This document shows, one piece after another, positions 13,033 through 62,900 of a DNA stretch of 64,000 nt. The DNA comes from an uncultured Bacilli bacterium. GTDB lineage: Bacteria; Bacillota_I; Bacilli_A; RF39; UBA660. Under the pieces are notes generated by a model. That model saw only the letters and a list, made by a program, of their open reading frames with translations, was not told the DNA's origin and made no database searches. The translations under genes and the position numbers were made by a program. The DNA lies in NCBI GenBank assembly GCA_934130375.1, contig CAKOXW010000001.1:50946-114945 (forward strand), written 5' to 3'. The number at the start of each line of letters is the position of its first letter. The first letter of the stretch is position 1.

Positions 13033-13056
13033 GTGTAGTCGTGGGCTTAAATGGTA
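13033..13056 (+). repeat. copy 1 of conserved 3'-flank motif (…GTGTAGTCGTGGGCTTAAATGG…)
   Basis: 21 nt after the GT4 stop. Compare with copies at 29941, 38433, 59810 and 62867. Confidence 0.7.
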
Positions 13057-13131
13057 TATATTTTGTAGTATAAACTTATAAAAAAACTCTATCGTTAAAT
13101 AGAGTTAAAATATTTTCATAATAAGAATGTA

Positions 13132-13530
13132 CTATTTACTATTTTTTTTACTTTTATTTTTTATAGTTTTACTTAAATTTAAAATTTTTTGTTTAGCAAT
13201 TTCATTTTGTGCTTTTGCTTCTTGAAATTCACATAATAAAGCCTCAATATCATCAGCATGATGTATGCCAATTTCACGCATTTCTTTTTCTTTTTTTGCA
13301 CTCATTATACCATTTTCAAAATATTCAATCAAATTTTTTGGTAGGTGAATATTTCCATTATAGTAGAAATCTTTATCTGCAGGACAGTATCCAAAATTAT
13401 ATAATTTATAACTTACATGACGATAATCACTATCCCATTTAGCCACATAAACAGTTCCTAATGAGTAACCCATTTTAATTGGCAATCCTTCATTGCAAAA
13501 AAGGATTTCTCTTTTTCCTTCGTATTTCAT
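13132..13530 (-). CDS. hypothetical protein (132 aa, Lys-rich C-terminus)
   Basis: Intact ORF, no recognised motif. Confidence 0.4.
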   Translation of the reverse strand: MKYEGKREILFCNEGLPIKMGYSLGTVYVAKWDSDYRHVSYKLYNFGYCPADKDFYYNGNIHLPKNLIEYFENGIMSAKKEKEMREIGIHHADDIEALLCEFQEAKAQNEIAKQKILNLSKTIKNKSKKNSK

Positions 13531-13678
13531 AACTAAACCTCCTCGTACAATTATTATAGCATGATTTTAAATAAAAGAAAATTTATTCTACTTTTTTAGG
13601 GGAAATTTAAAAGTTTTAGGGAATAAAATAGTAGGAGGTAATTTATGAACAAGTATTTAAAAAGGAAAAATATAATAC

Positions 13679-14209
13679 ATGTCTAGGTATTATAAAAAAA
13701 TATATGAAGAAAAGTATTATATAGATATTACTAAAGAGAAAGTTAAAAATAGAAATATTAATCCAAGAGAACCAAAAGAAGTTTTTGTGTACAAGCAATA
13801 TGATTTATCAAATGCAAAGTTTGATAAGAAGGGCCTTAGTAGTGATGAAAAGAGAAGTGTTGCTAGTCTAATAAAGTTTTTAGGTTGGGAAATAGATATA
13901 GTGCATAGAGTGAATATTCCTGAGGGTGTTAAAACACCTGATATCTATGCCGAAGGTGAGTACTGGGATATAAAAAATTATAAGAAATCCTTGACTTCAA
14001 AAAGTAGATTTAAAAAAATACGGCATTCTATTGAGCCAAATTTAGACCAAGCAAATAATTTTGTAATAGATTTGAATAATAAAGACTGTGATTTAACAAA
14101 TAATGAAGCAATTTTACAAATTAATAAAGTGTTTAAAGATTTTGAAAAAGCACAAAAAATAGTTTTAATTGGAAAAAGTGAACAAATATATTATTTTATA
14201 AAAAAATAA
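13679..14209 (+). CDS. hypothetical protein (176 aa)
   Basis: Intact ORF, no recognised motif. Confidence 0.4.
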   Translation: MSRYYKKIYEEKYYIDITKEKVKNRNINPREPKEVFVYKQYDLSNAKFDKKGLSSDEKRSVASLIKFLGWEIDIVHRVNIPEGVKTPDIYAEGEYWDIKNYKKSLTSKSRFKKIRHSIEPNLDQANNFVIDLNNKDCDLTNNEAILQINKVFKDFEKAQKIVLIGKSEQIYYFIKK

Positions 14210-14265
14210 AGAACTCACATCGGCGACACTCCGCCTCAACAAGTTCTCTAATGATTACATTATAT
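14208..14265 (+). repeat. GC-rich compound hairpin element R1 (AAAGAACTcacaTCGGCGacactcCGCCtcaACAAGTTCT + TAATGATTACATTATAT)
   Basis: Nested inverted repeats AGAACT/AGTTCT and GGCG/CGCC. Immediately follows the stop of the 176-aa ORF. Confidence 0.6.
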
Positions 14266-14353
14266 CAAAAGATTTATAATGTGTCAATCTCGATTTTATA
14301 CTTTAATCAAGACAATAATATTATATGCAACTAATAATAATAAATACTAAAAT

Positions 14354-14410
14354 AAAGAATTTACCTCGGCGACAATCGCCTTGACAAGTTCTTTATTGAT
14401 AACATTATAT
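14354..14410 (+). repeat. GC-rich compound hairpin element R2, ~80% identical to R1
   Basis: AAAGAATTTACCTCGGCGACAATCGCCTTGACAAGTTCTTTATTGATAACATTATAT. The downstream flanks also share ATGTGTCAAT and TATACTTTAAT with the R1 flank, so the whole ~140-nt unit is tandemly duplicated. Confidence 0.6.
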
Positions 14411-14685
14411 TAAATAAGTTATTATATGTCAATAAAAATGACACTGTAAAAAAATGGAAAAAGAAAAAGCATAACTTTCGTTATACTTTAATAGTCCCAC
14501 AAGAGGCCGACCCCCTGAAGAGCGACCTCAAAAAGAATAAAAAGGGGTTGGCTAGTGTGATACTAGCAGCCAAACCAATTTCTCGGTTTGGTACTTGTTA
14601 TAATACTTATAAATGGTATTTTTGTCAATAACTTTTTTTAAAAAAAATAAAAAAATTTGATATAATTGTTATGGGTGGTGATTAT

Positions 14686-16662
14686 ATGTCTGATTTAATT
14701 TATTTAAAGGGTGTTGGCCCTAAAACATTATCGTTATTAAATAAGTTAGAAATAAATGATATTGATGATTTAGTAACTCATTATCCATATAAATATGAAG
14801 TATTAAAAAGAAGTGATGTTTCATCTTTAAATCAAGATGATAAAATAATAATTGACGGAATAGTTGAAAATGTTCCTGTTGTATATAGATTTAAAAGTAT
14901 TGATAAGATGCAGTTTAATATAAATATTGGGAGTAATATCTACAAGGTTATAATATTTAATAGAGGATTTATGAAAACTAATATTAATATTGGTTCACAA
15001 GTAATTGTGATTGGTAAGTTTGATAAGAAGAATAATACCATAGTCGCATCTGAAATTTTACTTAATGAAAATCTAAATAATATTAAAATAATTCCTTTTT
15101 ATAGGACTTGTGATGGGTTAAATAGAAAAACATTAAAAAAAATAATTAATACTGCGCTTACTGACTATAATCCAGTTGATTTTATACCTGATTATATAAC
15201 TTTAAATAATTCGTTTATTGATAAAAAAAGTGCACTTAATAATATTCATAATCCAAGTAATATTGAAATGGTAAAAAAATCACTATTAAGACTTAAGTAT
15301 GAAGAATTATTTATGTTTATGCTTAAGATAAATGCTTTAAGAGAAAAAAATGCTTTATATAAAAAGGGGTACAATAGAAATATCAACAAGGATTTAATTG
15401 ATGAGTTTATAAGTAAATTACCTTTTGCTTTAACAAAAGACCAGTTAAATAGTGTTAATGAAATACTTAATGATTTAAATAGTGATAGTAGAATGAATAG
15501 GTTATTACAAGGTGATGTTGGTAGTGGTAAGACTATTGTTGCTTTGATTGCAATATATGGAATGATTAAAAGTGGGTATCAGTGTGCTTTGATGGCGCCT
15601 ACTGAGATTTTAGCGGAGCAACATTATAATAGCTTTAAGTCTCTTCTTCCCAATGTAAATATTTCATTACTAACTGGGAGTACTATTAAGAAGTCTAAGG
15701 ATGAGATAAATAATGAGTTAGCAAGTGGTAAGATAGAACTTGTAATTGGTACTCATGCTTTAATTGAAGATAATGTAACTTTTTCTAATCTTGGGTTAAT
15801 TGTTACAGATGAACAGCATAGATTTGGTGTTAATCAAAGAAATAATCTTAAGAATAAAGGTTCTATGCCTGATGTACTTTATATGAGTGCAACTCCTATA
15901 CCTAGAACTTATGCTTTAACTATTTATGGTGATATGGATATAAGTACAATTAAGACTATGCCAAAGGGAAGAAAACCTGTTGTTACAATCGTTAAAGATG
16001 AAGATGAAATTAAGGATGTATTATATCTTATTAAAGATAACTTAGATTTAAATCATCAAATATATGTTGTCGCACCTTTAATAGATGGTGAGAATAATGA
16101 TTCAGTTACCAAGTTGTTAAGGCAATATAAATTAGCTTTTAAAAATTATAAAATAGGTATGCTTCATGGAAAACTAAGGCCTAGTGAAAAAGAAGAGGTA
16201 ATGAAGAAGTTTATTAATGGAGAAATAGATATTTTAATATCAACAACTGTAATTGAAGTTGGAGTTGATGTTAAAAATGCAACAATGATAGTTATTCATA
16301 ATGCAAATCTTTTTGGTTTATCAACTCTCCATCAATTAAGAGGTAGGGTAGGAAGAAATTCCTATGATAATTACTGTGTATTAATTGGTAATAAAGATAA
16401 TGAAAGATTAAAGATAATGGAAACAACTTGCGATGGTTTTGAAATTAGTGAAAGCGACTTTAAACTAAGAGGTTCAGGTGATTTGTTTGGAGTTAAGCAA
16501 AGTGGTGATATGAATTTTAAGATTGCCGATATAAAGAAAGATTATAAAATACTAGAAAAAGCAAATTGTGATGCGTTGGAATTTATTAAGAAAGGAAATC
16601 TTGATAAGAATAAAGTTTTAAAGTTAGAACTATCAAGGTGTATGGATTTAAGTGATGTTTAA
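14686..16662 (+). CDS. recG: ATP-dependent DNA helicase RecG
   Basis: GGTGGTGA RBS before ATG 14686. Wedge-domain N-terminus, Walker A LLQGDVGSGKTIVALIAI, DEQHRFGV and helicase motifs QLRGRVGR. Confidence 0.9.
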   Translation: MSDLIYLKGVGPKTLSLLNKLEINDIDDLVTHYPYKYEVLKRSDVSSLNQDDKIIIDGIVENVPVVYRFKSIDKMQFNINIGSNIYKVIIFNRGFMKTNINIGSQVIVIGKFDKKNNTIVASEILLNENLNNIKIIPFYRTCDGLNRKTLKKIINTALTDYNPVDFIPDYITLNNSFIDKKSALNNIHNPSNIEMVKKSLLRLKYEELFMFMLKINALREKNALYKKGYNRNINKDLIDEFISKLPFALTKDQLNSVNEILNDLNSDSRMNRLLQGDVGSGKTIVALIAIYGMIKSGYQCALMAPTEILAEQHYNSFKSLLPNVNISLLTGSTIKKSKDEINNELASGKIELVIGTHALIEDNVTFSNLGLIVTDEQHRFGVNQRNNLKNKGSMPDVLYMSATPIPRTYALTIYGDMDISTIKTMPKGRKPVVTIVKDEDEIKDVLYLIKDNLDLNHQIYVVAPLIDGENNDSVTKLLRQYKLAFKNYKIGMLHGKLRPSEKEEVMKKFINGEIDILISTTVIEVGVDVKNATMIVIHNANLFGLSTLHQLRGRVGRNSYDNYCVLIGNKDNERLKIMETTCDGFEISESDFKLRGSGDLFGVKQSGDMNFKIADIKKDYKILEKANCDALEFIKKGNLDKNKVLKLELSRCMDLSDV

Positions 16663-17443: not shown

Positions 17444-17452
17444 AGGTGAAGT

Positions 17453-18307: not shown

Positions 18308-18415
18308 TATTGACAAATATTTATAAATAATTTATTATTAGAGTGTACAAATGATAAATTTGTGCACACTCTTACTGTTTTGTGTGAGAGTGTATTCAAC
18401 CAAAACCCCCTGAAA

Positions 18416-18478
18416 GGAGCTCTCCCCCCAGAGAGCCCCGCCTTTTTATTAAAGATACAACTCCATGTATCTTTTTTT
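18416..18478 (+). terminator. two consecutive intrinsic terminators
   Basis: GGAGCTCTCccccAGAGAGCCCCgccTTTTTATT followed by AAAGATACAactccaTGTATCTTTTTTT. Confidence 0.6.
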
Positions 18479-18506
18479 GTAAAAAAATATAAACATATGA
18501 TATAAT
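18477..18506 (+). promoter_or_regulatory. sigmaA-like promoter candidate (TTGTAA-18 nt-TATAAT)
   Basis: Read directly from the sequence. Sits upstream of a degraded ORF region. Confidence 0.25.
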
Positions 18507-18566
18507 ATATTTAATAAATAATATTTTTAAATGAACTTAGAAATAAATAGAAATGGATGTATTAGT

Positions 18567-18975
18567 ATGGAAAATAAGTTTTATTTAACAATAGAGAAAA
18601 ATATATTTGTTGTCAAAAGAAACATATATGGAAAAGCGCTAATTTAGAAGGAATTGATGTAAAATATCCAGAAACACAGGCAATATATGATGGTGGTGTA
18701 GTTAATGGATTAACTATTAATAAAATTATTGCTATTAACAACTTGAAATATGCCTGACAATTTATTTTAGAAAATGATTTTGTTGATTATGATTTTAAAT
18801 TATTATGTTATTTGCTAATAAAAGAATGGTAGATAATGGTTGTGGAATTATAACAATATCACAAGAAAATCAACTAATATTCTTTGAAAAATTAATTAAA
18901 TTTTATGAATCAGGTGATAATATAGACTTAAAACAATGAATTTATGAAACAAGTATTGATGGAATAAATTTATAA
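18567..18975 (+). pseudogene. fragmented remnants of an unidentified gene (short ORF pieces in all three + frames)
   Basis: RBS-led start MENKFYLTIEKNIFVVKRNIYGKALI*, then …KGIDVKYPETQAIYDGGVVNGLTINKIIAINNLKYA*, …ENDFVDYDFKLLCYLLIKEW*, …VVELGIITISQENQLIFFEKLIKFYESGDNIDLKQ*. No frame is intact. Its end (…ETSIDGINL*) is duplicated downstream of the ABC gene. Confidence 0.45.
18949..18975 (+). repeat. 27-bp direct repeat, copy 1 (ACAAGTATTGATGGAATAAATTTATAA)
   Basis: Identical 27-mer at 20794-20820. The two copies bracket the ABC gene plus its RBS. Confidence 0.85.
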
Positions 18976-18992
18976 AAGGAGGAATTTTAAAT

Positions 18993-20789
18993 ATGAAGTT
19001 ATTTAAGGAATTATGGAAAATAATATGTAATTTTATAAAACCTTACAAACTCGATGAGTCAATATTAAAAATGCCTAAAAATGTAAAAAAGATGGGTATA
19101 AAAATTGAAATATTATCTTTGTCATTGACAATATTTTCACTTGTTTTTGCATTTATTCTTAAGGTTACTAATATGATGATAGAACAAAAACTATTTTTAT
19201 TAGGTATTATTTTATATATGCTATATCGTGGTGAAAAAGTATTAAGGGATGCCTTTAATTTATATTCAGATACAGAATATGCTAAATATAATATGATATT
19301 TGAAGATGAATTAGTATTAAAGGGAACTAATATAATTGGTGTTACAAAAGATAGAGTTTTAAAATATGATGAAAATAGTAAAATATATCGCATAATGGAT
19401 AATGAAACTATTTTAAATACCATTAAAAAATATCTAGATAATTTATGGAGGCATCAAATAAAGCATCGATTTGATGTTATAGAAATAATAAGTATTTTAC
19501 TTATGGTTGCTACTGCTATTATCACAAACGATGCGATACCTAATAATATTTATATATCTCTAATTTTAATTTTTGGGTCTTTATCATTTGTAAGTTCAGC
19601 ATATATAAATTTAAATAGAGGTAATTATTATAAGAAAAATAGAGAATTTAATAATGAACAATCAATTATTGTAAATGATTTATTAAGAGTGCCAACTATT
19701 GTAAGTAAGGATTTAGATATGAGAATTGCTAGATTTAAAAAAACAGTAATAGATAGTAATAAAAATATTAAAGATTTTCATAAAAAAATGAACTTTACTA
19801 GAATGATTATGACTATAATTGAAACTTTAAGTCAATATGGAATTATTGTTTTTTATGTAATGAATGTAAAACTAGAAAATTTAACACTAGGAAGTATTGC
19901 ACAGATAACTGCAACATTAGCAATTGTGGAAACTGCTATTGGATATATGAGAAGATTTGTTAATGCTCTAGAAGACAATAACGATCGACTAGTGGCTCTT
20001 GAAAAAGAATCAGCTGATATGAAACTAATTTTAGAAATATATCACAATATAAATCAAAAAGAAGTTAATATAATTGTAGACAGTATCAATATTAAACCAT
20101 TTACTATTAAATATTTAAAAGGATCTAATAATGATATTCCATTCACTCTTAGATCGGATAAAGATATAAATATAAATAAAGGTGAAGTAATAGTGTTATA
20201 TGGACCCTCAGGAAGTGGCAAATCGACATTTATGAATATGCTTACTGAAAGAATTAAATTAGAAAAAAGCACTGATATTCCTACTACATCTAGATTTTTA
20301 ATGTATGATGATAAATTAAAATTTGGTAGTTTAAGTATATATGAAGAAATATTTTGTGATAGTGAAAATCCAGATTTGCTAAAAATGAAAAATATTCTTA
20401 AAAATCTACATTTATGGGAAGAAATAGAAGCTAATTCAAAAAATGTATGGCAATACATGAAAGAAAGAAAATTTGAACACTCATTATCTAATGGTCAAAA
20501 GCAAAGACTTATTTTAGCAAAACTATTATATTTTTTAGATGATAATATAGATGCCCTAATTTTAGATGAATGCACATCTGGATTGGATGATGATGATAAA
20601 AATCATATTGATGCATGTGATGTGCTTGAATATATTGTTAAATATTCAAACAAAGATAAAAAAAGAATAGTAATAATATCTACACATCAAAATATCGATA
20701 AATTCAAAGATAACATTAAAAATGAATATAAAATTAGAAATTTTAAATTTATAAAAGAAGATAATATCAATTATATAAAAGAGTTATAA
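18993..20789 (+). CDS. ABC transporter, fused permease/ATP-binding protein (exporter-type)
   Basis: N-terminal ~330 aa with multiple TM helices. Walker A GPSGSGKST, signature LSNGQKQR, Walker B ALILDECTSGLDD. Confidence 0.75.
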   Translation: MKLFKELWKIICNFIKPYKLDESILKMPKNVKKMGIKIEILSLSLTIFSLVFAFILKVTNMMIEQKLFLLGIILYMLYRGEKVLRDAFNLYSDTEYAKYNMIFEDELVLKGTNIIGVTKDRVLKYDENSKIYRIMDNETILNTIKKYLDNLWRHQIKHRFDVIEIISILLMVATAIITNDAIPNNIYISLILIFGSLSFVSSAYINLNRGNYYKKNREFNNEQSIIVNDLLRVPTIVSKDLDMRIARFKKTVIDSNKNIKDFHKKMNFTRMIMTIIETLSQYGIIVFYVMNVKLENLTLGSIAQITATLAIVETAIGYMRRFVNALEDNNDRLVALEKESADMKLILEIYHNINQKEVNIIVDSINIKPFTIKYLKGSNNDIPFTLRSDKDININKGEVIVLYGPSGSGKSTFMNMLTERIKLEKSTDIPTTSRFLMYDDKLKFGSLSIYEEIFCDSENPDLLKMKNILKNLHLWEEIEANSKNVWQYMKERKFEHSLSNGQKQRLILAKLLYFLDDNIDALILDECTSGLDDDDKNHIDACDVLEYIVKYSNKDKKRIVIISTHQNIDKFKDNIKNEYKIRNFKFIKEDNINYIKEL

Positions 20790-20793
20790 TAAT

Positions 20794-20820
20794 ACAAGTA
20801 TTGATGGAATAAATTTATAA
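20794..20820 (+). repeat. 27-bp direct repeat, copy 2
   Basis: See copy 1. Confidence 0.85.
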
Positions 20821-20836
20821 TTTTAAAGGAGATAAT

Positions 20837-20998
20837 GTGAAAATAACTGAAGGTATAGCAAAGAAAATATTAAATATATTAATATTAATTATGCTTATTT
20901 ATGCATCTTTTGGATGTATAATTATAAAAAATTATTTAATGGCATTTATGTGTATATTTTTATTTATAATATATTTCATAAAAACATTTAAAAAATAG
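20837..20998 (+). CDS. small two-helix membrane peptide (53 aa), not in ORF track
   Basis: AAAGGAG RBS 7 nt before GTG. VKITEGIAKKILNILILIMLIYASFGCIIIKNYLMAFMCIFLFIIYFIKTFKK*. Confidence 0.4.
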   Translation: MKITEGIAKKILNILILIMLIYASFGCIIIKNYLMAFMCIFLFIIYFIKTFKK

Positions 20999-21008
20999 GC
21001 ATATAATT

Positions 21009-21452: not shown

Positions 21453-21497
21453 ACAATATATTTAAAATTAAAATTATATTATTTAATTGGTGATATT

Positions 21498-21950: not shown

Positions 21951-21989
21951 ATAATAAATATTTGATATTATTTATTTGGAGGTATTGGT

Positions 21990-22631: not shown

Positions 22632-22738
22632 ATGATTTTGATTTTTTATCAAAATTTTTTTAATTTTTTAAGATACATACTTGCAATAAAAATTTATATG
22701 TGATAATATAACACGTAAAATAGAATTTGGGAGGTAGA

Positions 22739-25916: not shown

Positions 25917-25944
25917 AAAAATAGTATTTTATTCATATAATGAA

Positions 25945-27285: not shown

Positions 27286-27294
27286 GTGATGAGC

Positions 27295-29258: not shown

Positions 29259-29924
29259 ATGGAAGAAGAAAAGGTGGTTAAAAAATTTAGTTTTGTTAAG
29301 TTATTGCTAGTATTATTAATAATGTACGTAATTGGTTATTTTGGTTATAAAGTAGCAATATCAAGGATAACTAATATATATATTAAAAATAATAATATAC
29401 TTACTGATCAAGAAGTAATAGATGCATCTGGACTTAGAAATTATCCTAGTTTTATATTAACAACTAATTATTCAATTAAGAATAAGTTATTAAAAAATAA
29501 TTTAGTAAAAAAAGTTAAAGTAAAAAAGGGTTTATGGGGAAAAGTATATATAGATATTGAGGAATATAAACCATTATTTATATATGAAGATAAAGTAATA
29601 TTAGATAATAAAAATGAAGTAGACCTTGATATATCACTTCCAATACTTGTTAATAAAGTAGATGATGAAATTTTAGATAAATTAATAAGTAAATATGAAA
29701 GTGTTAATGATGAAATAAAGTTAATGATTTCTGAAATTAGATATGACCCAAATGATATAGATAAAGAAAGATTTTTATTTACTATGAGTGATGGTAATTA
29801 TGTATATATTACTTTATATAAATTAAGTTCAATAGATGAGTATTTGAAGATTACATCTACACTAAAGGATAAAAAAGGTATACTATATTTAGATAGTGGT
29901 AATTATTTTGAAGTATTTAAATAA
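29259..29924 (+). CDS. divIB: cell division protein DivIB/FtsQ (POTRA domain)
   Basis: N-terminal TM followed by IKNNNILTDQEVIDASGL (POTRA). Sits directly after murB. Confidence 0.75.
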   Translation: MEEEKVVKKFSFVKLLLVLLIMYVIGYFGYKVAISRITNIYIKNNNILTDQEVIDASGLRNYPSFILTTNYSIKNKLLKNNLVKKVKVKKGLWGKVYIDIEEYKPLFIYEDKVILDNKNEVDLDISLPILVNKVDDEILDKLISKYESVNDEIKLMISEIRYDPNDIDKERFLFTMSDGNYVYITLYKLSSIDEYLKITSTLKDKKGILYLDSGNYFEVFK

Positions 29925-29940
29925 CAAGCAATTGTTATTT

Positions 29941-29965
29941 TTTTATGTATTCGTGGGCTTTGATA
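29941..29965 (+). repeat. copy 2 of conserved 3'-flank motif (TTTTATGTATTCGTGGGCTTTGATA)
   Basis: 17 nt after the divIB stop. A hairpin plus T-run terminator follows at ~30008-30036. Confidence 0.7.
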
Positions 29966-30097
29966 GTATGCAGTTTGAGTAAATTGTGTAAATATATAAA
30001 ACAAATTGATTTAAGTTGTTGCTTAAATCTTTTTTAATATTTATATTTTCTTAAAAATATTTTTGTGATATACTATTTATAGAATAGGTGGTGTCGC

Positions 30098-36833: not shown

Positions 36834-37229
36834 ATGAAAAGAAATGGTTTTACATTAGTTGAATTACTTGCAGTAATAGTTATACTTTCCTTGATACTCA
36901 CAATCGCATATCCTAAGGTATCAAGTTTGATTGAAAATGAAAAGCAAAGAACATTTAAATTATCAGTTAATTCGCTTATAAATGGCGCTAAAAATGTATG
37001 TGCTAATTACCAAAGTGAATTAAATGCTAGTGAGAAAACATATACATATATAGATAATAAATTTAAATGTGATACCGAGATTTTAGAAATGAGTAATCCT
37101 GGGAAGTTTATATCTCCTTCTACAATTTCATACAACAAGGATTGTGAAGTTAGTTTATCAGTAGAGAATGAAGAATATAAAGCCACAAAAGATTATAGTG
37201 ATAGTGATATAACTATTGTTAGAAAATAA
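36834..37229 (+). CDS. small prepilin-type (ComGC/GspG-like) pilin/pseudopilin
   Basis: MKRNG|FTLVELLAVIVILSLILTIAYP class III signal with Glu+5. 131 aa. Confidence 0.8.
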   Translation: MKRNGFTLVELLAVIVILSLILTIAYPKVSSLIENEKQRTFKLSVNSLINGAKNVCANYQSELNASEKTYTYIDNKFKCDTEILEMSNPGKFISPSTISYNKDCEVSLSVENEEYKATKDYSDSDITIVRK

Positions 37230-37901: not shown

Positions 37902-38421
37902 GTATATAAAAAGATTATTAGATATAATTATTTCATTAATATTAATAATTATATTATCTCCTATATTACTTATTATGTTAATAATTACTAAAATAGAGTT
38001 TTCTGGCAATCCAATATATTCTCAATATAGAATAGGTAAGAATGAGAAACCATTTAAAATATATAAATTTAAAACAATGGATGATAATACTAAGAAAACA
38101 ACTAAAGTAAGTAGAGTAATAAGAACTATAGGATTAGATGAGTTATTACAATTATTCAATGTATTAAATGGTACTATGTCTATAGTTGGTCCAAGGCCAT
38201 TTATTGTTGGTGATTCTTTACCTTCTATGTATAATAAAAAAAGGCATAGTGTAAGACCTGGTATAACAGGACTTGCGCAAGTAAATGGTAGAATAACACT
38301 TACTCATAAAGAAAAATTAAAATATGATGATATATATGTAAATAATGTAAGTTTTATAATGGATTTAAAAATAGTTTTAAAAACTATAAAATATGTATTT
38401 AAAGTAATAATTGGAAAATAA
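37894..38421 (+). CDS. small monotopic phosphoglycosyl transferase (bacterial sugar transferase, PglC/WbaP C-terminal-domain type)
   Basis: MYKYIKRLLDIIISLILIIILSPILL…KPFKIYKFKTM…DELLQLFNVLNGTMSIVGPRPF. ATG overlaps the rnc stop (ATGTATAA). Confidence 0.75.
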   Translation: MYKYIKRLLDIIISLILIIILSPILLIMLIITKIEFSGNPIYSQYRIGKNEKPFKIYKFKTMDDNTKKTTKVSRVIRTIGLDELLQLFNVLNGTMSIVGPRPFIVGDSLPSMYNKKRHSVRPGITGLAQVNGRITLTHKEKLKYDDIYVNNVSFIMDLKIVLKTIKYVFKVIIGK

Positions 38422-38432
38422 TTATTACTTTT

Positions 38433-38456
38433 TTTATGTATTCTTGTGCTTAAGAA
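38433..38456 (+). repeat. copy 3 (degenerate) of conserved 3'-flank motif (TTTATGTATTCTTGTGCTTAAGAA)
   Basis: 12 nt after the phosphoglycosyl transferase stop. Confidence 0.55.
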
Positions 38457-38544
38457 AGTTTATATAATATATTTATAAATTTATATGTTAAAGAATATGC
38501 AATTTTATGATATACTTTATATATAGTAGAAAGGGTGAAATTAT

Positions 38545-39804
38545 ATGAAGAAGAAAAAAGGGTTTACATTAATAGAGTTACTTGCAGTAATAGTAATACT
38601 AGCAGTAATACTAGTTATTGCAGTACCAAGAATTAGTGATGTAATAAAAAATTCTAAAAAAGCATCGTTTGAAGCAAGTGCAAAAACAATAATATCACAA
38701 GCAGAGAAAAAGAAAATGGAGCAAGAAGTACTAGGTAATACTAATCCAATAAATTGTAGCGATATTGCTAATATTAATAATGATGATTATGAAAGTTGTG
38801 AAATAAATTTTGATGCAAATGGTAATGCTAAGATTACACTTATAGGAAAAGGAAAATTTGAAGGATTAAAAATAGTTGATGCAACAAAAGATAATTTAAG
38901 TGCAGTTGAATCAAAACTACCTGAATATGGTATAGCAACTGACTATATAAGTAACTTATATTCTTATGATGCTGAATCTAATGGACTTAAAAAAGATAAT
39001 ACTGTTGATGCTAATATAAGATATTATGGAGAGAATCCTAATAACTATGTATCCTTTAATAATGAATTATGGAGAATAATAGGTGTATTTGGTAATAATG
39101 TAAAATTAGTAAGAGGAAGATTAGGTAGTTTATCATGGGATACATCAGATTCTACTATAAATAATGGATTTGGAGTAAATGAATGGAGTGGTGCTGATTT
39201 AAAAGAGTACTTAAATACAATGTATTATGGTGGTACAAGTGTTACATGTTATAATGATGCGAATAACACAACTACAACATGTCCAACCGTATCATTAAAT
39301 GAAAATGCAAAAAGTATGATAGATAATCATACATGGGCAACTGGTGCAATAGAAGTTGAAAAAATGACAGATACAATTGCATTTTATAATGCAGAAAGAG
39401 GGACGCAAACAGGTAAAATATGTACAAGTGGAGATTATTGCAATGATACAGTTACAAGAACTACATTATGGATTGGATATATTGCTCTTCCTTATGTAAC
39501 AGACTGGGCATATGCAAGTGGTGAAGCAGAATGTGAAACTAATCTAGCAAAAGAAGATAGTTCAGGTAAGAATTTATGTAAAAGCAATAATTGGATGCCT
39601 AGTAATAGTTATTCATGGTATCTTTCACCAATTGCTAACACTAGTGGTGCTGTTGGTGCTTGGGATGTCGGCGATATAGGATTAGCTAATAGTGAAGGTG
39701 TTTTTGTATCTCGTCGCTTTTCTCCAGCTTTGTATCTAAAAAGTGGTGCAAAAATAATGAGTGGTACTGGTACTAGTAGTGATCCATATAAATTAGAAAT
39801 ATAA
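38545..39804 (+). CDS. prepilin-type N-terminal domain protein with ~380-aa C-terminal globular/adhesin-like region
   Basis: MKKKKG|FTLIELLAVIVILAVILVIAVP class III signal with Glu+5. The C-terminal part is Asn/Thr/Ser- and Cys-rich. Confidence 0.8.
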   Translation: MKKKKGFTLIELLAVIVILAVILVIAVPRISDVIKNSKKASFEASAKTIISQAEKKKMEQEVLGNTNPINCSDIANINNDDYESCEINFDANGNAKITLIGKGKFEGLKIVDATKDNLSAVESKLPEYGIATDYISNLYSYDAESNGLKKDNTVDANIRYYGENPNNYVSFNNELWRIIGVFGNNVKLVRGRLGSLSWDTSDSTINNGFGVNEWSGADLKEYLNTMYYGGTSVTCYNDANNTTTTCPTVSLNENAKSMIDNHTWATGAIEVEKMTDTIAFYNAERGTQTGKICTSGDYCNDTVTRTTLWIGYIALPYVTDWAYASGEAECETNLAKEDSSGKNLCKSNNWMPSNSYSWYLSPIANTSGAVGAWDVGDIGLANSEGVFVSRRFSPALYLKSGAKIMSGTGTSSDPYKLEI

Positions 39805-44397: not shown

Positions 44398-46677
44398 ATG
44401 AAAGAAGCATTTTGGGGACTACTTATAATTATCTTAGGAATATTTGGCATAGTATGTATAAATTTATTTCAGAATGTTACTGTAGATAATGATAAAGTGT
44501 ATTATGTTTTAAAAGAATCGACTGAAGCATCTGCCCATGATTCAATTGATTTAAGTTACTATAGACTAGGTGGCTCACTAAGAATAGTTGAAGATAAGTT
44601 TGTTGAGAATCTTGCAAGAAGATTTTCACAAAGTATTACTGCTGGTAGATATACAATATCAGTACAAAATATAAATGAGCTACCACCACTTATGTCAGTA
44701 AAAATAAGAAGTGGAGTATCATCAATAAAGGGAGATGAATTTAACTTAACAAATAGAGTTGATGCGATAATTGAAACTAAATATAAGTTAAGTGAAGTTC
44801 TTGATTTCTTAGGAATTACTGAAGAAGAATGGAATGACATAAACAATAAGAATAAAGATACAATCAAAAATGGAGTATGTGGAGTAACATTTATAAATGA
44901 TGGAGATTTAGATTGTATTACAGGAGATTTAAGATTTGATGGGCTTGGTGATACCGATTTAAAAAATGCAGTATGTATGGGTCAACAAAAATCAAATGTA
45001 GAAGCAACTGCTAAGTATAGTGTTTGTGAGTGTGGAAAATGGGTTTCAAAAGAAGAAACACTAGTTGCTAATCCGGTACTTGTTAACAATGATGGAAATA
45101 GAGAATATGTTTATACATATAGATTTGTAAAAACTGGTGAAATAAGAAATATTGATGAAACAATAATAAAAAGAGTTAGAGCAGATGTATGTACAACGGG
45201 TGTAGAAGTATGGGTTCCAAAAGATTTAAGAGAAAAGGAACCAAGTAGCGATAATTCTAAGTATGTAAAGTGTGATCCGGCAACAGGTATAAGAATACCT
45301 GAAGATGTTGAGATAGTACTTCATCCAAATTATATACCATTAAATGCAACAAATAGAGAAATAAAATGGACAGCTGGTAATGCAAGTTTGTTATCATTTG
45401 GAAGTTTTAGTGTTACACAGCCAACAAAATTAACTGGTTTTTCAAGAGCATTAATAAAAGGTAAATTAAGTGGTACAGAGGAAGAACAAACAACAATGAC
45501 TGCAACAACTACATTAGACCAAAGTGCAGTATGTCCAATAAGAGTATGGGATGGTAATGTTGATAGTGTAAGTTGTGAAAATATAAATACTAAGGTAGGT
45601 TATACGACAGCATTTAAAGGTTCATACGAGCCATATAATGCAACTAAAACCAAATTAAAATGGTCAATTGATGATACATCACTTGTTGAACTAGATGAAT
45701 TAACAGGTAAAGCAAAAGCTTTAAAAGTTGGAACTGCAACAATAACAGTTACTGCTGAAAATGGTAAAACAGCAACATGTACATTAAAAGTAGATAAATA
45801 TCAAGAACCTAGATCAGATGGTGGATATTCAGGAGCCGGAGGTGGAGGTGGTGCTGGTATATGGATTGTAACAGATAAAGATGGAAATAGAACAACATAT
45901 AGCAATATGTATAATGCTATAAAGGCTGCAGGTACTAAGGTTGGAGAAGTTTCTATATCGGTTTCGAATGGATCTGGAGAATATGAATGGGCAAAAGGTG
46001 TGACCGAATCTCATTTAAAAAGTGCATCAACTGAACTTGTTAAGACGGCGGGTGGAACAATATCAATAAAAAGCGATGATAAAAATGGTATAATATTTAA
46101 AATAAAGGATGAAAATGGCAGATTACTTGAAACAAATCAAAATCCACCACCACCACCATATCAAGAACCTTGTTACTGTTGTGGTGGATGCGGAGGTGGT
46201 TATGTGCCTGGTTCTCCAGAACAAGGTGCTGCTGCAAATAATAGTATAGTTGCATGTTTTGAAAAAGGTACTGAAGTATTGACTAATAATGGTTATAAAG
46301 ATATAAGTAAATTAAAAGTTGGGGAAAAGGTTTTATCATATAATGAAAATACAAAGAAAAACGAATATGCTAAAATCATTAAAGTATATAAACACGAAAA
46401 AGTAAGTGATACATTATTCTCCTTAACAATAAATGGAACTATTGTCAAAGCATCAAGTGAACATCCATTTTACATAAAGACAGTAAATGGAATTACTCAA
46501 ATTAAAGCAGAAAATTTAAAAATTGGTGATATAGTAATAACTTCTTTTGGAAATTATTATCCGATAACTTTCATTTCTTCTATGAATATAGTTGAAGATT
46601 TATATAATATTGAAGTTGAAAATAATCACAATTATTATGTTACTAGAGAAAATGTTCTAGTACATAATAAACCATAG
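44398..46677 (+). CDS. N-terminally membrane-anchored Big_2 surface protein ending in a mini-intein-like Hint/BIL (bacterial intein-like, type A) domain
   Basis: TM LLIIILGIFGIVCINLF. Two Big_2-like Ig domains. Gly-rich SGAGGGGGAGIW and PPPPPYQEPCYCCGGCGGG. The final ~140 aa contain intein blocks A (A|CFEKGTEVLT), B (SSEHPF), F (LYNIEVENNHNYYV) and G (ENVLVHN), followed only by KP*. Confidence 0.75.
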   Translation: MKEAFWGLLIIILGIFGIVCINLFQNVTVDNDKVYYVLKESTEASAHDSIDLSYYRLGGSLRIVEDKFVENLARRFSQSITAGRYTISVQNINELPPLMSVKIRSGVSSIKGDEFNLTNRVDAIIETKYKLSEVLDFLGITEEEWNDINNKNKDTIKNGVCGVTFINDGDLDCITGDLRFDGLGDTDLKNAVCMGQQKSNVEATAKYSVCECGKWVSKEETLVANPVLVNNDGNREYVYTYRFVKTGEIRNIDETIIKRVRADVCTTGVEVWVPKDLREKEPSSDNSKYVKCDPATGIRIPEDVEIVLHPNYIPLNATNREIKWTAGNASLLSFGSFSVTQPTKLTGFSRALIKGKLSGTEEEQTTMTATTTLDQSAVCPIRVWDGNVDSVSCENINTKVGYTTAFKGSYEPYNATKTKLKWSIDDTSLVELDELTGKAKALKVGTATITVTAENGKTATCTLKVDKYQEPRSDGGYSGAGGGGGAGIWIVTDKDGNRTTYSNMYNAIKAAGTKVGEVSISVSNGSGEYEWAKGVTESHLKSASTELVKTAGGTISIKSDDKNGIIFKIKDENGRLLETNQNPPPPPYQEPCYCCGGCGGGYVPGSPEQGAAANNSIVACFEKGTEVLTNNGYKDISKLKVGEKVLSYNENTKKNEYAKIIKVYKHEKVSDTLFSLTINGTIVKASSEHPFYIKTVNGITQIKAENLKIGDIVITSFGNYYPITFISSMNIVEDLYNIEVENNHNYYVTRENVLVHNKP

Positions 46678-59046: not shown

Positions 59047-59805
59047 ATGAAAATAAACAAATTTAAAAAAGTTGGTACTAATAAATATAAGATTTATTTT
59101 GATAATGAAATTCTTACTGTATATGAAGATGTAATATTAAAATATAATTTATTATATAAAAAGGATATTGATAATGATTTATTGCATGAAATAAATAAAG
59201 ATAATTTTAAAGCATCTATTTATGATACTGCAGTAAAATATATAAGTATAAGAATGAGGTCTGTAAAGGAATTAAGGGAATATTTAACTAAGAAAAAGTT
59301 TGAATGTAAGAATATTGATGAGGTAATAGATAGACTACTTCATGAAAATATATTAAATGATAGTAATTTTGCTAGATGTTATGTAAATGATAAGTTATTA
59401 CTCACTAATAATGGGCCTGATAAGATTAAAAGTGATTTAATGAAATTGGGTATTAGTGATGATATTATTTCAAATGTGATAGCTAATATTGATAATGATA
59501 TTGTTAATGAAAAGTTAGAGAAAATAATAAAAAAAGAGATAAAGAATAATACTAAATTGCCTCTTAATAAGATGAAGAATAAGATAATAAATAGATGTAT
59601 AAATGCTGGATATAAGTATGATAGTATTATAGAAGTATTAAATAGTAATACATTAAGGTCTAAATCTAATATTGAAGATGAATATAATAAGTTATATTCT
59701 AAGTATAGACTTAAGTATGAAGATTATAAATTAAAACAATTTTTAAGAGGTAAGTTGTATCAAAAAGGGTATAGTATAGAAGAGATAAATAGTATTATTG
59801 ATTAA
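59047..59805 (+). CDS. recX: recombination regulator RecX
   Basis: Three-helix repeats. …YISIRMRSVKELREYLTKKKF…IDEVIDRLLHENILNDSNFARCYV… is typical RecX. Confidence 0.65.
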   Translation: MKINKFKKVGTNKYKIYFDNEILTVYEDVILKYNLLYKKDIDNDLLHEINKDNFKASIYDTAVKYISIRMRSVKELREYLTKKKFECKNIDEVIDRLLHENILNDSNFARCYVNDKLLLTNNGPDKIKSDLMKLGISDDIISNVIANIDNDIVNEKLEKIIKKEIKNNTKLPLNKMKNKIINRCINAGYKYDSIIEVLNSNTLRSKSNIEDEYNKLYSKYRLKYEDYKLKQFLRGKLYQKGYSIEEINSIID

Positions 59806-59809
59806 CTTA

Positions 59810-59845
59810 TTTTATGTGTAGTCGTGGGCTTAAGTAGTTTATATT
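59810..59845 (+). repeat. copy 4 of conserved 3'-flank motif (TTTTATGTGTAGTCGTGGGCTTAAGTAGTTTATATT)
   Basis: Begins 5 nt after the recX stop. Hairpin terminator TAGTTTACAtgTGTAAACTA+T7 at 59858-59884. Confidence 0.75.
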
Positions 59846-60165
59846 TAGGTAATGAATAGTTTACATGTGTAAACTATTTTTTTGTACAAGTATTATTAAT
59901 GTTTAAAAATGGAAAAGACCATTTGGTCTTATTTTGTTGCTATAGTTTTATGTGATGATGTTTACTGCAGTATTTTTTGAATAATTGTGTAGTATTTGTA
60001 TGGTTTTTAATGATATTTTGATATAATACTTATTATTTTTTAAAAATTAGAAAATATTATTGCAGTATTTATTTTAGTTGCTGCAGTATTTATTATAGTT
60101 TTTTGTAGTATTTAAATTGTTTTTTCATACAAATAAATGAGCATGAAAAAAAAGACCATTTGGCC

Positions 60166-61143
60166 TTATTTTTTTGTTGATGATGCTTTTTGTTCATTCA
60201 TATAATGATCATATTTTATTTTTAATTCAGCATCGTAAATTTTTAAATCATTTTTTTCTCTTAACCATTCCATAGCATAAACATAAATATTATCAGTATT
60301 GCTTATTTTTTCACTTACTAAAGTGTCTTTAATACTATCTTTTACTTCGTCGAATGCAGGTTTTTCTTTTTGGTCTGTTTTTAATATTATGTGATATCCA
60401 AATTGTGTTTTAACAGGTTCTTTTGTATATTCTCCAACTTTTAACTTAACAGCAGCATCTTCAAATTCAGTTACTGTTTTGCCTCTATTGAAGTAACCAA
60501 TATTACCACCATCAGATGCAGATGAATCTGAAGAATTTTCTTTTGCTAACTCTTCGAAACTAGCACCTTCATCTAATTTTTTAATTAATTCTTTTGCTTT
60601 TTCTAATGCTTTAGCCTCAGCTTCTTTCTTTTCATCACTAGTTGCATTGCTACTAGCGTCAGACTTAATAAGAATATGACTTACTTTCATATCACCAATT
60701 GATTTTTCTTCATAATATTTTTCAATATCTTTATCAGTAATTAGAGTAGCAGCATAATCTTTCGCAGCATTTTCTCTTTTGAACGCAACTTCAATATAAT
60801 CTCTTAATTCTTTTTCAGAAGAAACTCCATAATATTGACTAATTGCACTATTGAAATCTGAACCAAATTGATTTTTTAAAGATACGATAGTACTATCAAT
60901 CTTAGTTTTCATATCTTTATCAGTTTCATATACCTTATTTAATAATTGATCATCAATTGAATTAATTAAAGCATATGTTCCATAACTTGTTTTTAATTTG
61001 TTATAGAATTCATCAACTGTCATATTTAGTCCATCCATTTCAAACAATAACTCAGAGCCATCATTTAATTTTGGTATTTTACCACAACCTGTTAATGATA
61101 ATATAACAAGTGATACACATAATATTTTTTTAATTGCTTTCAT
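60166..61143 (-). CDS. prsA: foldase lipoprotein PrsA (parvulin-type PPIase)
   Basis: Lipobox LSLTGCGK. Parvulin domain MKVSHILIKSD…GGNIGYFNRGKTVTEFEDAA…FGYHIILKTD. Confidence 0.8.
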   Translation of the reverse strand: MKAIKKILCVSLVILSLTGCGKIPKLNDGSELLFEMDGLNMTVDEFYNKLKTSYGTYALINSIDDQLLNKVYETDKDMKTKIDSTIVSLKNQFGSDFNSAISQYYGVSSEKELRDYIEVAFKRENAAKDYAATLITDKDIEKYYEEKSIGDMKVSHILIKSDASSNATSDEKKEAEAKALEKAKELIKKLDEGASFEELAKENSSDSSASDGGNIGYFNRGKTVTEFEDAAVKLKVGEYTKEPVKTQFGYHIILKTDQKEKPAFDEVKDSIKDTLVSEKISNTDNIYVYAMEWLREKNDLKIYDAELKIKYDHYMNEQKASSTKK

Positions 61144-61272
61144 CTAAAATCCTCCTTGCATAATAATTATAATAAAAAAACAATAAAAAAACAATAATTT
61201 AGTTATAAGTAATCACACTATTTATGCATTTGCCATAAAATAATGTGAATAGATGAAAAGGAGGAATCGATT

Positions 61273-61356
61273 ATGGGACACGGATATATTAATGGTTCAG
61301 CCATAGTATTAGTATTATTCATAATATTAGTAATCGTAATAGGTGCCTACATTTAA
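61273..61356 (+). CDS. tiny TM protein, YjcZ/tiny_TM_bacill-like (27 aa), not in ORF track
   Basis: AAAAGGAGG RBS. MGHGYINGSAIVLVLFIILVIVIGAYI*. Confidence 0.5.
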   Translation: MGHGYINGSAIVLVLFIILVIVIGAYI

Positions 61357-61376
61357 ATAAAAAAGGAGGTGTAATT

Positions 61377-61490
61377 ATGGCTTGCAATACAACATGCCAA
61401 AACTCTTGTGGTGGAGGCAATACAGGATTTTTAATTGTTATAGTTTTATATATTTTACTTGCTATAATACTAGGATCAGTTATATGCTAA
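61377..61490 (+). CDS. tiny TM protein, YjcZ-like paralogue (37 aa), not in ORF track
   Basis: AAAAGGAGGTG RBS. MACNTTCQNSCGGGNTGFLIVIVLYILLAIILGSVIC*. Confidence 0.5.
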   Translation: MACNTTCQNSCGGGNTGFLIVIVLYILLAIILGSVIC

Positions 61491-62134
61491 GAAAGATTGA
61501 GAAATCAATCTTTTTATCTAAACCAATAATAGGTATAGTAACTAGATTAGAAAATAATATGCATAAAATAAATAAATCTCTAATTGATAATATTACTAAG
61601 TGCGGTGGTTTATGCTTAGGAATTATTAATGAAGAAAGATATAGTTATGAATTTTTAGATAGAGATAAATTAATTATTGATAATATATTAAAAATATGTG
61701 ATGGTTTTGTGATACCAGGTGGTAGTACTGAGAGTTATTTAGATAAATATATTATAGAGTATGCAACTAAAAATAATATTCCAATACTTGGTATTTGTCT
61801 TGGTATGCAGGAAATGTCTTCTTTTCTTGATTTAGAAGAAGTTTCTAATCATAATAAAAGTAATAGATATGTGCATAAAGTAAATATTGATAAGAATTCT
61901 TTATTATATAAAATATTTAAAAAAGATATTTATGTTAATAGTAGGCATAACTATAAGATAAAGAATTTAAATGGTTATAAAGTTGTTGGTAGGTGCCAAG
62001 ATGTTATCGAAGCAATAGAGAAGGATGATAATACTTTTAATGTTGGTGTACAGTGGCATCCAGAAGATATTGATAATGAAGAATTATTTGATTATTTTAT
62101 TAATAGTACAATAATTGACAAAATTTTTAAATAA
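61484..62134 (+). CDS. class I glutamine amidotransferase-like / peptidase C26 (gamma-glutamyl hydrolase family)
   Basis: …ILGICLGMQEM…HNYKIK…VQWHPE. The track's start at 61382 gives an implausible Cys/Tyr-rich extension that overlaps the tiny ORF. ATG 61484 is more likely. Confidence 0.65.
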   Translation: MLRKIEKSIFLSKPIIGIVTRLENNMHKINKSLIDNITKCGGLCLGIINEERYSYEFLDRDKLIIDNILKICDGFVIPGGSTESYLDKYIIEYATKNNIPILGICLGMQEMSSFLDLEEVSNHNKSNRYVHKVNIDKNSLLYKIFKKDIYVNSRHNYKIKNLNGYKVVGRCQDVIEAIEKDDNTFNVGVQWHPEDIDNEELFDYFINSTIIDKIFK

Positions 62135-62166
62135 TATATAATATACTAAAAAAAGAGGTGAGAGAG

Positions 62167-62856
62167 ATGAGTTTTAATTTATATAATGGAGTTTATAATT
62201 TTACTACTAGTTGTAGTGATGGCTCTTTAAGTAAGAAAGAATTACTTGGTTTATTAAAGTGTGAAAAAGAATATTTAGAAATGAAATATGGTATTGATAC
62301 TAGAAAAATGATTATTCCTAATCAAGATTTAAATAATGAAGGTATTTTACTTGATATTACTAATTTAGCAGAAGAAGCTTTATTTGATGATAGTATTAAT
62401 TTACTTGATTATAATATTCCATGTGATGCGGTTATGATAAGTAGGTTTGCACCAAGTATCGCACTTGCGTATCCAACAAGTGATAATCCAGTTATAACTA
62501 TTGAATCTGATTATGCAATCGCACTTGCAAGTATGAATATTGATAAATTGAATGATAATTTACTTGAAGATATTGTAAAGAAATTTTTAAGAGTATGTAA
62601 TTTATCTAATGATAAAATTAAAATTCATGTTGGACCTTGTGCTTCTTATGAAAGTATTAATATAAAAGATATGATTAGTGGTAGTTTAGATAGAATTGGT
62701 ATTAATAATGTTAAATATGACAATAGAGATACAGTTACTAATGATGATTTGTTTTCAGAAATTGGTAATAAGAAAGGTAATCATTTAACTGGTATATATT
62801 ATAAACCTGATGAGAAAACTTTGAAACTACTTCGTCATCACTCAAAATGGTATTAA
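62167..62856 (+). CDS. YfiH/PgeF-like (DUF152, purine-nucleoside phosphorylase/laccase-domain) protein
   Basis: AGAGGTG RBS. NIPCDAVMISRFAPSIALAY and KIHVGPCASYESI resemble the YfiH …ADCxP… and …IGPCI…YEV blocks. Weak. Confidence 0.4.
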   Translation: MSFNLYNGVYNFTTSCSDGSLSKKELLGLLKCEKEYLEMKYGIDTRKMIIPNQDLNNEGILLDITNLAEEALFDDSINLLDYNIPCDAVMISRFAPSIALAYPTSDNPVITIESDYAIALASMNIDKLNDNLLEDIVKKFLRVCNLSNDKIKIHVGPCASYESINIKDMISGSLDRIGINNVKYDNRDTVTNDDLFSEIGNKKGNHLTGIYYKPDEKTLKLLRHHSKWY

Positions 62857-62866
62857 TTTTATGTGA

Positions 62867-62900
62867 ATTCGTGGGCTTAAGTAATTTATATTGCAATAAT
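62867..62900 (+). repeat. copy 5 of conserved 3'-flank motif (TTTTATGTGAATTCGTGGGCTTAAGTAATTTATATT)
   Basis: Begins 11 nt after the stop. Hairpin terminator AAAGACTTTACatatGTAGTAAAGTCTTT at ~62904-62933. Confidence 0.75.

Follow-up and report, generated by a model that had tools for sequence, protein, structure and literature searches.

A short polar motif behind gene ends of an uncultured gut Bacilli genome: candidate head of a lineage-restricted interspersed repeat

The locus and the copies of the motif

The window analysed here comprises 64,000 nt of contig CAKOXW010000001.1 from an uncultured Bacilli bacterium, the contig having a length of 216 kb and stemming from a Hadza human-gut metagenome. 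It represents core chromosome, encoding among others MutL, RecG, a type II topoisomerase A subunit, MurG, MurB, FtsK, RNase III, SMC, PPDK and PolA, and it holds a Xer-type integrase gene, which relatives carry at the same locus. Within this stretch, whose GC content is 26.7%, a short motif with a GC-rich centre recurs directly behind gene ends; it is referred to here as the head and is the subject of this work. The ungapped consensus obtained from five window sites describes a unit of 31-37 nt, which is composed of a T-run and TRTGTAKTCGTGGGCTTAARTRRTTTATAT. Five copies, all on the plus strand, had been listed by the initial annotation, and a search with the core sequence TCGTGGGCTTAA recovered each of them at the sites given there and none on the minus strand of the window, whereby the core was found to be exact at 13039, 59822 and 62869 and to carry two mismatches at 29951 and 38442. 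The region searched was extended to 83.7 kb of the contig, i.e., the window and about 10 kb on each side, which revealed a sixth, degenerate copy (TCGAGGGATT) behind ddl at window-equivalent position 66655, 2.6 kb past the window end. Two further copies were identified in metagenomes with a pattern covering the core and the 3' part of the head; they locate to the gut-metagenome contigs L004 (behind tyrS) and L005 (behind an ABC exporter gene) and are termed L4 and L5, the contig copies being numbered c1 to c6.

Copy c1 occupies 13026-13063 (+; profile score 34.7 bits), with the core TCGTGGGCTTAA at 13039-13050, and follows a GT4 glycosyltransferase gene whose stop lies at 13012, the next gene being convergent. 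Copy c2 (29938-29975, +; 29.1 bits) possesses the core TCGTGGGCTTTG and follows a DivIB/FtsQ-type gene (stop 29924), while c3 (38429-38466, +; 21.0 bits) is of a variant type (TTCTTGTGCTTAAGAAAGT) and resides behind a Bac_transf sugar-transferase gene (stop 38421). Copy c4 (59809-59846, +; 38.7 bits) is consensus-like and locates 4 nt past the recX stop (59805), and c5 (62856-62893, +; 37.7 bits) begins at the last stop-codon base of a gene for a 232-aa protein (62158-62856, +). For the latter protein no Pfam match at E<=0.01 was obtained, leaving the earlier label of a YfiH-like gene without support; the relative L099 does not have this gene in the interval between its GATase and hydrolase genes. 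The genes with a head at their end, encoding the GT4 glycosyltransferase, DivIB/FtsQ, the Bac_transf sugar transferase, RecX, the 232-aa protein, Ddl, TyrS and the ABC exporter, have no function in common.

The claim that these oriented and positionally constrained copies exceed chance expectation was substantiated by base composition, shuffling, profile search and placement alike. On the plus strand, the exact core 12-mer was found three times as compared to 1e-3 occurrences expected from base composition and exact 10-mers four times as compared to 7e-3, while the 34-nt pattern with up to three mismatches gave two matches, with none in 100 shuffles. A nhmmer profile built from the copies scored the members at 21.0-39.5 bits and everything else in the 83.7 kb at 3.3 bits or less. 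A weak look-alike behind the tRNA at 9384 is probably a mere terminator stem. K-mers of the core such as CGTGGGC are confined to the heads, and the 12-mer finds no mention in the searchable literature. Among the six contig copies, which were found without selecting on the core, the core is better conserved than its flanks (4/60 versus 26/126 mismatches, P=0.018).

All eight copies are co-oriented with the upstream gene, and their cores start 13-30 nt after the stop, namely 13-27 nt past the last stop-codon base for the six contig copies (as based on crude gene calls), 13 nt on L004 and 30 nt on L005, the head always lying within the first ~40 nt behind the gene end. That the core keeps so closely to the stop codon speaks for a link with the gene end. 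Six of the 32 contig spacers that locate behind plus-strand genes and comprise at least 45 nt hold a head, both sizeable convergent junctions of the contig being among them, and given a copy in such a spacer on the plus strand, the probability of the observed placement is ~3e-5. A head is present at roughly every fifth gene or operon end of the contig. Six copies were found in 83.7 kb of contiguous sequence, a density of roughly one per 14 kb. None of the eight copies is found in coding DNA, which makes up 91% of the sequence. Three copies face a convergent gene, as exemplified by L004, where the head behind tyrS faces rpsD; on L005 the genes and the head all reside on the minus strand. Judged by GC skew, all copies lie on the leading strand; as nearly all window genes are on the plus strand and the skew is strongly positive throughout, gene and replication orientation are inseparable here.

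Distribution, terminators and structure

The nearest reference genomes are those of Bacilli from gut and rumen, all uncultured, and belong to the group of Clostridium sp. CAG:1193, Mycoplasma sp. CAG:877, Candidatus Coprovivens and Scybalousia, with a best Ddl identity of 84%. The head profile gave no match in 77 related species (1.2 Mb), none in relatives with ~75% MurF identity or 78-79% FtsK identity and none in a sister species, species A, with 84% RecX identity. Likewise, the pattern covering the core and the 3' part had no match in 185,579 reference genomes and none in viral contigs, and BLAST against plasmid and phage records together with the viral-contig scan returned chance matches only. 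Among the relatives examined, the head was found in a single sister, species B, which also shares 84% RecX identity and possesses a diverged head (TTTTATGTGTATTCTTAGGTCTTAAGAAAGT) at its recX end.

The recX end offers a comparison of three states: it carries no head in species A, a head in the window species and a variant head in species B. In species A the recX stop is followed directly by a single copy of the bidirectional recX/prsA terminator, the spacer there comprising 20 nt. The window holds ~103 additional nt at this place (59806-59908), which comprise the head, 11 nt, a hairpin (59854-59886, +; free energy, dG, -9.6) with a T7 run and 25 nt, before the native bidirectional terminator conserved in species A is reached at 59913-59939. 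This terminator is duplicated in the window, a second copy of 27 nt and 93% identity residing 237 nt further on (60150-60176), and the ~210 nt between the two copies are internally repetitive, AT-rich DNA with 47-nt and 19-nt direct repeats. The species-B head is 70% identical to c4, as compared to 76% identity at the third-codon positions of recX and 89% between the paralogous copies c4 and c5. The pattern TTCTT.{2,5}CTTAAGAAAG was found only twice in 1.6 Mb, in c3 and in the species-B copy, which points to a putative second head type instead of random decay. At the ddl end only the window species is filled, the relatives keeping the terminator stem without a head, as is the case for the ddl terminator hairpin of CAG:1193. 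The copy residing there, c6, has two core changes, and in a comparison of two strains with 98.9% identity, c4 and c5 were unchanged while c6 showed a further two differences in its head, one of which falls in the core.

Terminators were annotated with a relaxed scan, since the standard scan demands three G-C pairs and hence misses most terminators of this genome. At gene ends without the motif, native terminators overlap or adjoin the stop, their hairpins starting at -24 to +39 and ending at +8 to +61 (all but one by +38), with dG values of -5 to -14. Hairpins of this native class were also identified at c1, c2, c3 and c6, where they overlap the stop (dG -5.9 to -9.9), end at +9 to +17 and thereby end where the head begins, the U-run of the hairpin being the T-run that opens the head. 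In detail, the hairpin before c1 (12990-13021, +; dG -7.9; -22 to +9) overlaps the GT4 stop and its T-run enters the head; the hairpin and T-run before c2 (29918-29941, +; dG -5.9; -6 to +17) overlap the divIB stop, and a 13-bp hairpin with a T7 run (38400-38432, +; dG -9.9; -21 to +11) overlaps the sugar-transferase stop before c3. No hairpin precedes the head at c4 and c5, as revealed by the relaxed scan, nor at L4 and L5, as revealed by reading; at these sites the first hairpin comes after the head. Behind c5 it is a 12-bp hairpin (62901-62931, +; dG -12.2), being the first terminator-like structure after the gene for the 232-aa protein. Further hairpins follow c1 (13086-13105, +; ACTCTAT..ATAGAGT), having an A-run on one side and a T-rich tail on the other and probably serving as bidirectional terminator of the convergent pair, and c2 (30007-30030, +; dG -8.6), where a second terminator hairpin precedes the extended -10 promoter of the next gene, while no convincing terminator was found downstream of c3. 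The head consequently stands after a terminator in one half of the copies and before one in the other half, so that the earlier description of the motif as lying upstream of terminators is accurate only in part.

The c5 spacer was found to contain a rearrangement of its own, as 63011-63057 copies the last codons and the terminator of the gene at 51303-52172 (52141-52186), 11 kb away, the final 26 nt being 100% identical. The copied segment reads as a 14-codon relic open reading frame (ORF) behind a Shine-Dalgarno-like GGTG; the source terminator (52161-52186) is conserved upstream of polA in sister species.

Conserved RNA structure was not identified for the head. Rfam 15 scans of the whole window at gathering thresholds and at E<=5 gave no match at any copy, RNAalifold predicted 0 base pairs for the eight aligned heads, and single-sequence folds placed the core in no consistent structure; the head is unstructured and no stem-loop with T-run, as expected for an intrinsic terminator, resides within it. 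Apart from the 31-37 nt of the head the spacers have nothing in common, and pairwise similarity of the tails behind it is not significant, so that the copies do not belong to one dispersed longer repeat such as an insertion sequence (IS) terminus, which the initial annotation had named as a possible refutation. A conserved module composed of head and hairpin is likewise not claimed, c4, c5 and L5 sharing TTTAC..GTAAA stems with tail similarity remaining insignificant. Sequence complementary to the head was not found in 84 kb. A -10-like TTTATAT/TATATT is present at a fixed place in six of the eight heads and lost in c2 and c6, and sigma-70 scans (-35/-10 with 16-18 nt spacing) gave no match inside c1, c4 or c5.

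Several further candidates for the identity of the head were tried and rejected. A coding or recoding function was considered, as TGT AKT CGT GGG CTT AAR TAR is codon-like, with CGT/CGA, AAG/AAA and TAG/TAA variants; it was ruled out by the frame relative to the upstream ORF being inconsistent (by reading -1 for c4, +1 for c5 and 0, i.e., in frame, for c1), by upstream stops that are all TAA, by the absence of a Shine-Dalgarno sequence and by a frame shift in the type-B copies. A T-arm relic of a tRNA or tmRNA, or an integrase attachment site, was considered, as the core resembles TCATGGGTTCAA of the window tRNA-Glu (three mismatches); it was rejected because the positions that are invariant in T-loops are missing, as is one half of the stem, the 3' one. 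Group IIC introns insert after terminators; the head does not possess the GUGYG start of their 5' end and nothing intron-like follows it. For a Xer/dif-like site, TTATGT resembles the XerD arm and neither a partner arm nor a central region was found. A ComX cin-box on the opposite strand (CACGAATA) is present in three copies only and would drive antisense transcription. Promoters of the extracytoplasmic function (ECF), sigma-54 and SigB types and MraZ GTGGG repeats show no consistent spacing or second element, and a Chi-like site was discarded with the core k-mers being confined to the heads.

A putative interspersed repeat and competing explanations

The motif is proposed to be the conserved head of a young, lineage-restricted, copy-and-paste short interspersed repeat, which occurs in one orientation in the termination zone behind genes; this proposal is given about an even chance of being correct. 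Identity over 31-37 nt at eight unrelated loci is explained only by copying and not by convergence. The signature of a young repeat family, and not that of an old regulatory site, is given by confinement to one species together with a variant in one sister, the clean empty site in another sister, a similarity that is higher within the genome than across species, and decaying copies together with the lack of a shared host function. Rearrangements in head-bearing spacers, i.e., the duplicated terminator in the c4 spacer and the copied gene 3' end with its terminator in the c5 spacer, were counted in its favour.

Mechanistically, the head would spread by copying and not by point mutation, and would land straight after a stop codon or straight after a terminator overlapping the stop. 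Here, the GC-rich 10-mer TCGTGGGCTT would be recognised by a protein that acts in trans and whose gene lies elsewhere in the genome, be it a transposase, a recombinase or a nuclease-like enzyme, and this protein would copy or homogenise the element. The GC-rich core is probably the putative protein recognition site, and its conservation above that of the flanks would fit recognition by such a trans-acting protein. Polarity would follow from the polarity of the target, which would be the T-run at the transcript end, and the strict polarity together with the T-rich transcript-end position do suggest that a polar feature of the termination zone is targeted. Copies would persist at this position because it disturbs neither the upstream coding sequence nor the downstream promoter, and survival only where both are spared probably adds to the placement pattern. 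Any effect on the host, be it an extra spacer or a terminator after the head, would be secondary.

A number of findings weigh against the proposal of an interspersed repeat. The profile search of the 83.7 kb revealed no inverted, minus-strand copy, terminal inverted repeats are absent, and no clear target-site duplication was identified at the junctions of the one empty/filled pair. Transposase, reverse transcriptase and HUH nuclease genes were not found in 84 kb, where a 50-aa rve_2 fragment and the Xer-type integrase shared with relatives were the only related findings. Moreover, the unit of 31-37 nt is shorter than typical miniature inverted-repeat transposable elements (MITEs) and, unlike REPs, non-palindromic. 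Copy c4 is consensus-like even though its site is also occupied in species B, which calls for gene conversion, for selection or for a second, independent insertion at that spot; selection would favour a functional reading. Finally, the data comprise eight copies and one clean empty site.

Comparison with the closest known kinds of short repeats yields partial likeness in each case. REP/BIME elements of proteobacteria, which are mobilised by RAYT (TnpA-REP) enzymes, comprise 20-40 nt, are extragenic, lie mostly behind genes or at convergent junctions, are lineage-specific and depend most on their core, all of which resembles the head. GTAG precedes REP stems, and GTAG is also contained in the head. 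In contrast, REPs are imperfect palindromes, usually arranged as inverted pairs and present in hundreds of copies, whereas the head has no predicted pairs and is never inverted; a RAYT gene (Y1/HUH) was not found in the 84 kb examined. MIRUs (mycobacterial interspersed repetitive units) lie in the same direction as the flanking genes. They are short, apparently mobile repeats at gene boundaries, which minimises harm to the neighbouring gene (PMC12548453). The head resembles them in its position at gene boundaries and in the co-orientation of all eight copies with the upstream gene; however, MIRUs are found at start codons inside operons and contain a small ORF translationally coupled to the next gene, whereas the head lies after stops or terminators and in many cases at a convergent junction or the end of an operon. 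A coupled small ORF of this kind was not identified in the head, the frames differing between copies and a Shine-Dalgarno sequence being absent. MITE-like repeats such as bcr1 of the Bacillus cereus group, RUP and BOX of pneumococcus and Correia of Neisseria are dispersed, lineage-specific and non-coding, and some of them supply terminators or promoters. Like the head they are tolerated in transcribed spacers near gene 3' ends, but they comprise ~100-200 nt with terminal inverted repeats, target-site duplications and stable folds, in contrast to 31-37 conserved nt without inverted repeats and without a fold. The head resembles all three in dispersal, lineage specificity and preference for gene boundaries. 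Since the structural hallmarks of each are missing, namely the palindrome, the inverted termini with target duplication and the coupled ORF, it was not classed in any of these named families.

Among the competing explanations, a cis-acting RNA tag of the 3' untranslated region (3'-UTR), as already envisaged by the initial annotation, is considered possible and rather unlikely. It assumes that the head is transcribed at the mRNA end and read in single-stranded form by an RNA-binding protein, a small RNA or an RNase; it would set mRNA stability or 3'-end processing for ~20% of the operons, its copies being duplicated and kept by selection. The strict sense orientation at 13-30 nt after the stop, the position between stop and first terminator at c4, c5, L4 and L5, the accessibility an unstructured head would have, the core being better conserved than the flanks and the consensus-like state of c4 at a site that is occupied in species B as well are all consistent with this idea. 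It is weakened by the native-class terminator that ends just before the head at c1, c2, c3 and c6, as a consequence of which most transcripts of these four of the eight loci would be without it, by the absence of conserved structure and by a head that is not conserved at the orthologous sites of sister species, that of recX included; moreover, c6 is decaying between strains, the host genes have no common function and no complementary sequence resides in the 84 kb.

A related idea, to which a similarly low probability is assigned, regards the head as a species-specific 'gene-end tag', whereby a factor would bind DNA or nascent RNA at TCGTGGGCTT (single-stranded or duplex), mark about one fifth of the transcript ends, including essentially all convergent junctions, and enforce termination or the fate of the 3' end. 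The AU-rich terminators of the genome would be intrinsically weak, and the tag would have spread by copying in co-evolution with its factor, whereby the canonical and variant 'dialects' of sister species would be accounted for. Were such a functional reading true, a recently invented, sequence-specific layer of 3'-end control would have been met.

A polar protein site acting at the level of DNA at transcript ends, i.e., a roadblock or a GC-rich downstream-duplex element which would aid the weak AU-rich terminators of a 27% GC genome or insulate convergent genes, is regarded as improbable, and its variant of a replication-fork or chromosome-organisation site as less likely. In intrinsic termination, downstream DNA at ~10-20 bp past the U-run sits inside the terminating RNA polymerase, and the core is found at this distance at four sites. 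Besides, the head is present at both sizeable convergent junctions of the contig and at tyrS/rpsD on L004, all copies locate to the leading strand, and the GC-rich core is conspicuous in AT-rich DNA. However, four copies have no upstream hairpin to assist, generic GC-richness would do without a conserved sequence of 31-37 nt, and relatives with equally weak terminators manage without a head; known fork traps, for their part, do not resemble a set of six sites within 54 kb that all lie close behind a stop codon.

That the heads are solo ends or relics of a longer mobile element, i.e., an IS or MITE terminus left behind by deletions, appears very improbable. Many IS ends begin with TG, as does the head, a rve_2 transposase fragment resides at ~3.9 kb in the window, and duplications are found in head-bearing spacers; yet eight independent deletions would be needed to reach the same end base by a stop or terminator in one orientation, no inverted partner lies within the spacers, and matches to plasmids, phages and viral contigs stay at chance level.

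Little probability indeed is left for the head as a promoter or 5' end of tiny RNAs ending at the following hairpin, as the -10-like box fixed in six of the eight heads and a hairpin within 10-40 nt at most sites would allow. This box is accompanied by neither a -35 element nor an extended -10, the sigma-70 scan is negative at c1, c4 and c5, c2 and c6 no longer possess the box, conservation does not extend to the tails, the transcript would be little beyond a terminator hairpin, and TATAT-like strings are uninformative at a GC content of 27%.

Finally, the initial annotation had raised a DNA-uptake sequence for natural transformation. Uptake sequences also occur inside genes and are found in both orientations. 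They comprise 9-11 nt and are generally present in at least 1,000 copies per genome (~1 per kb), close complementary copies frequently forming terminator stems (PMC1852404). The head shares a conserved GC-rich core, AT-rich flanks and the association with terminators with the Neisseria DNA uptake sequence (DUS) and the Pasteurellaceae uptake signal sequence (USS), and the genome encodes prepilin-type proteins, but the idea is hardly credible, as most defining features are missing: at ~1 per 14 kb the head is about 100-fold sparser, it is never found in genes, it has a single orientation and no inverted pairs forming a terminator stem, its core k-mers are absent outside the heads, it is species-restricted and not shared with sister species, and the window encodes neither pilus-assembly nor competence genes. 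As for the abundance of pilin and pseudopilin genes cited in favour of the idea, only four proteins with a prepilin-type N-terminus were identified; genes for a pilus-assembly ATPase, a platform protein or a prepilin peptidase were not found in the window.

Ample documentation of short interspersed repeats exists for proteobacteria, mycobacteria and a few cultured Firmicutes, and hardly any for the small-genome gut Bacilli, uncultured organisms whose existence is known almost exclusively through metagenomes. The family described here would be unusual in being non-palindromic, strictly polar and locked to the first ~40 nt behind genes, and this polar lock to the gene end implies that either the ends of transcripts are read by a targeting mechanism or a factor acts there. 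The head is a tractable test case for a repeat homing to termination zones. It may further be used as a precise species or strain marker for the lineage and flags rearrangement-prone spacers that can break assemblies.

Further observations in the window and in a relative

Proteins with a prepilin-type N-terminal methylation motif are encoded at 685-3498, 36834-37229 and 38545-39804 (+), and a 38-nt coding repeat is common to these genes near their 5' ends. The large ones also possess Listeria-Bacteroides repeat, glycine-rich or cadherin-like domains. In the glycine-rich part of the 937-aa prepilin-type gene a 53-nt direct repeat (60% GC, 94% identical) was identified at 2149-2201 and 2893-2945 (+). 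Genes related to conflict or mobile elements encode a CdiA_C-like toxin domain (13679-14209), a DUF5411/Big_2/PT-HINT polymorphic toxin (44398-46677), a PemK/MazF-like toxin (9747-10166) and the 50-aa rve_2 integrase fragment (~3903-4055).

An exact 27-nt direct repeat (ACAAGTATTGATGGAATAAATTTATAA) at 18949-18975 and 20794-20820 brackets a gene for a 598-aa ABC-ATPase (18993-20789), and the 400 nt upstream of it (18560-18975) read like a gene broken by in-frame TAG/TGA stops; the ABC-ATPase gene possibly came to lie at the end of a pseudogene by insertion or by duplication. Close by, a 685-nt spacer contains a GC-rich, hairpin-rich stretch (18340-18478, +; e.g., ggagctctccccccagagagcccc) followed by a terminator, which has no Rfam match at E<=5 and is possibly an undescribed small RNA or leader. 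A tRNA-Ser (GCT) was identified by ARAGORN at 51124-51214 (+); it is absent from the Rfam gathering scan, and the permissive scan gave a weak 'tmRNA' match of 19.6 bits. The related species L025 was found to carry a three-copy dispersed hairpin repeat of its own (..aaactcggacttttatagttcgagttt..; 15541-15593, 18521-18573 and 19586-19621), the sequence of which is unrelated to the head, and this clade may commonly harbour short spacer repeats that are specific to one species.

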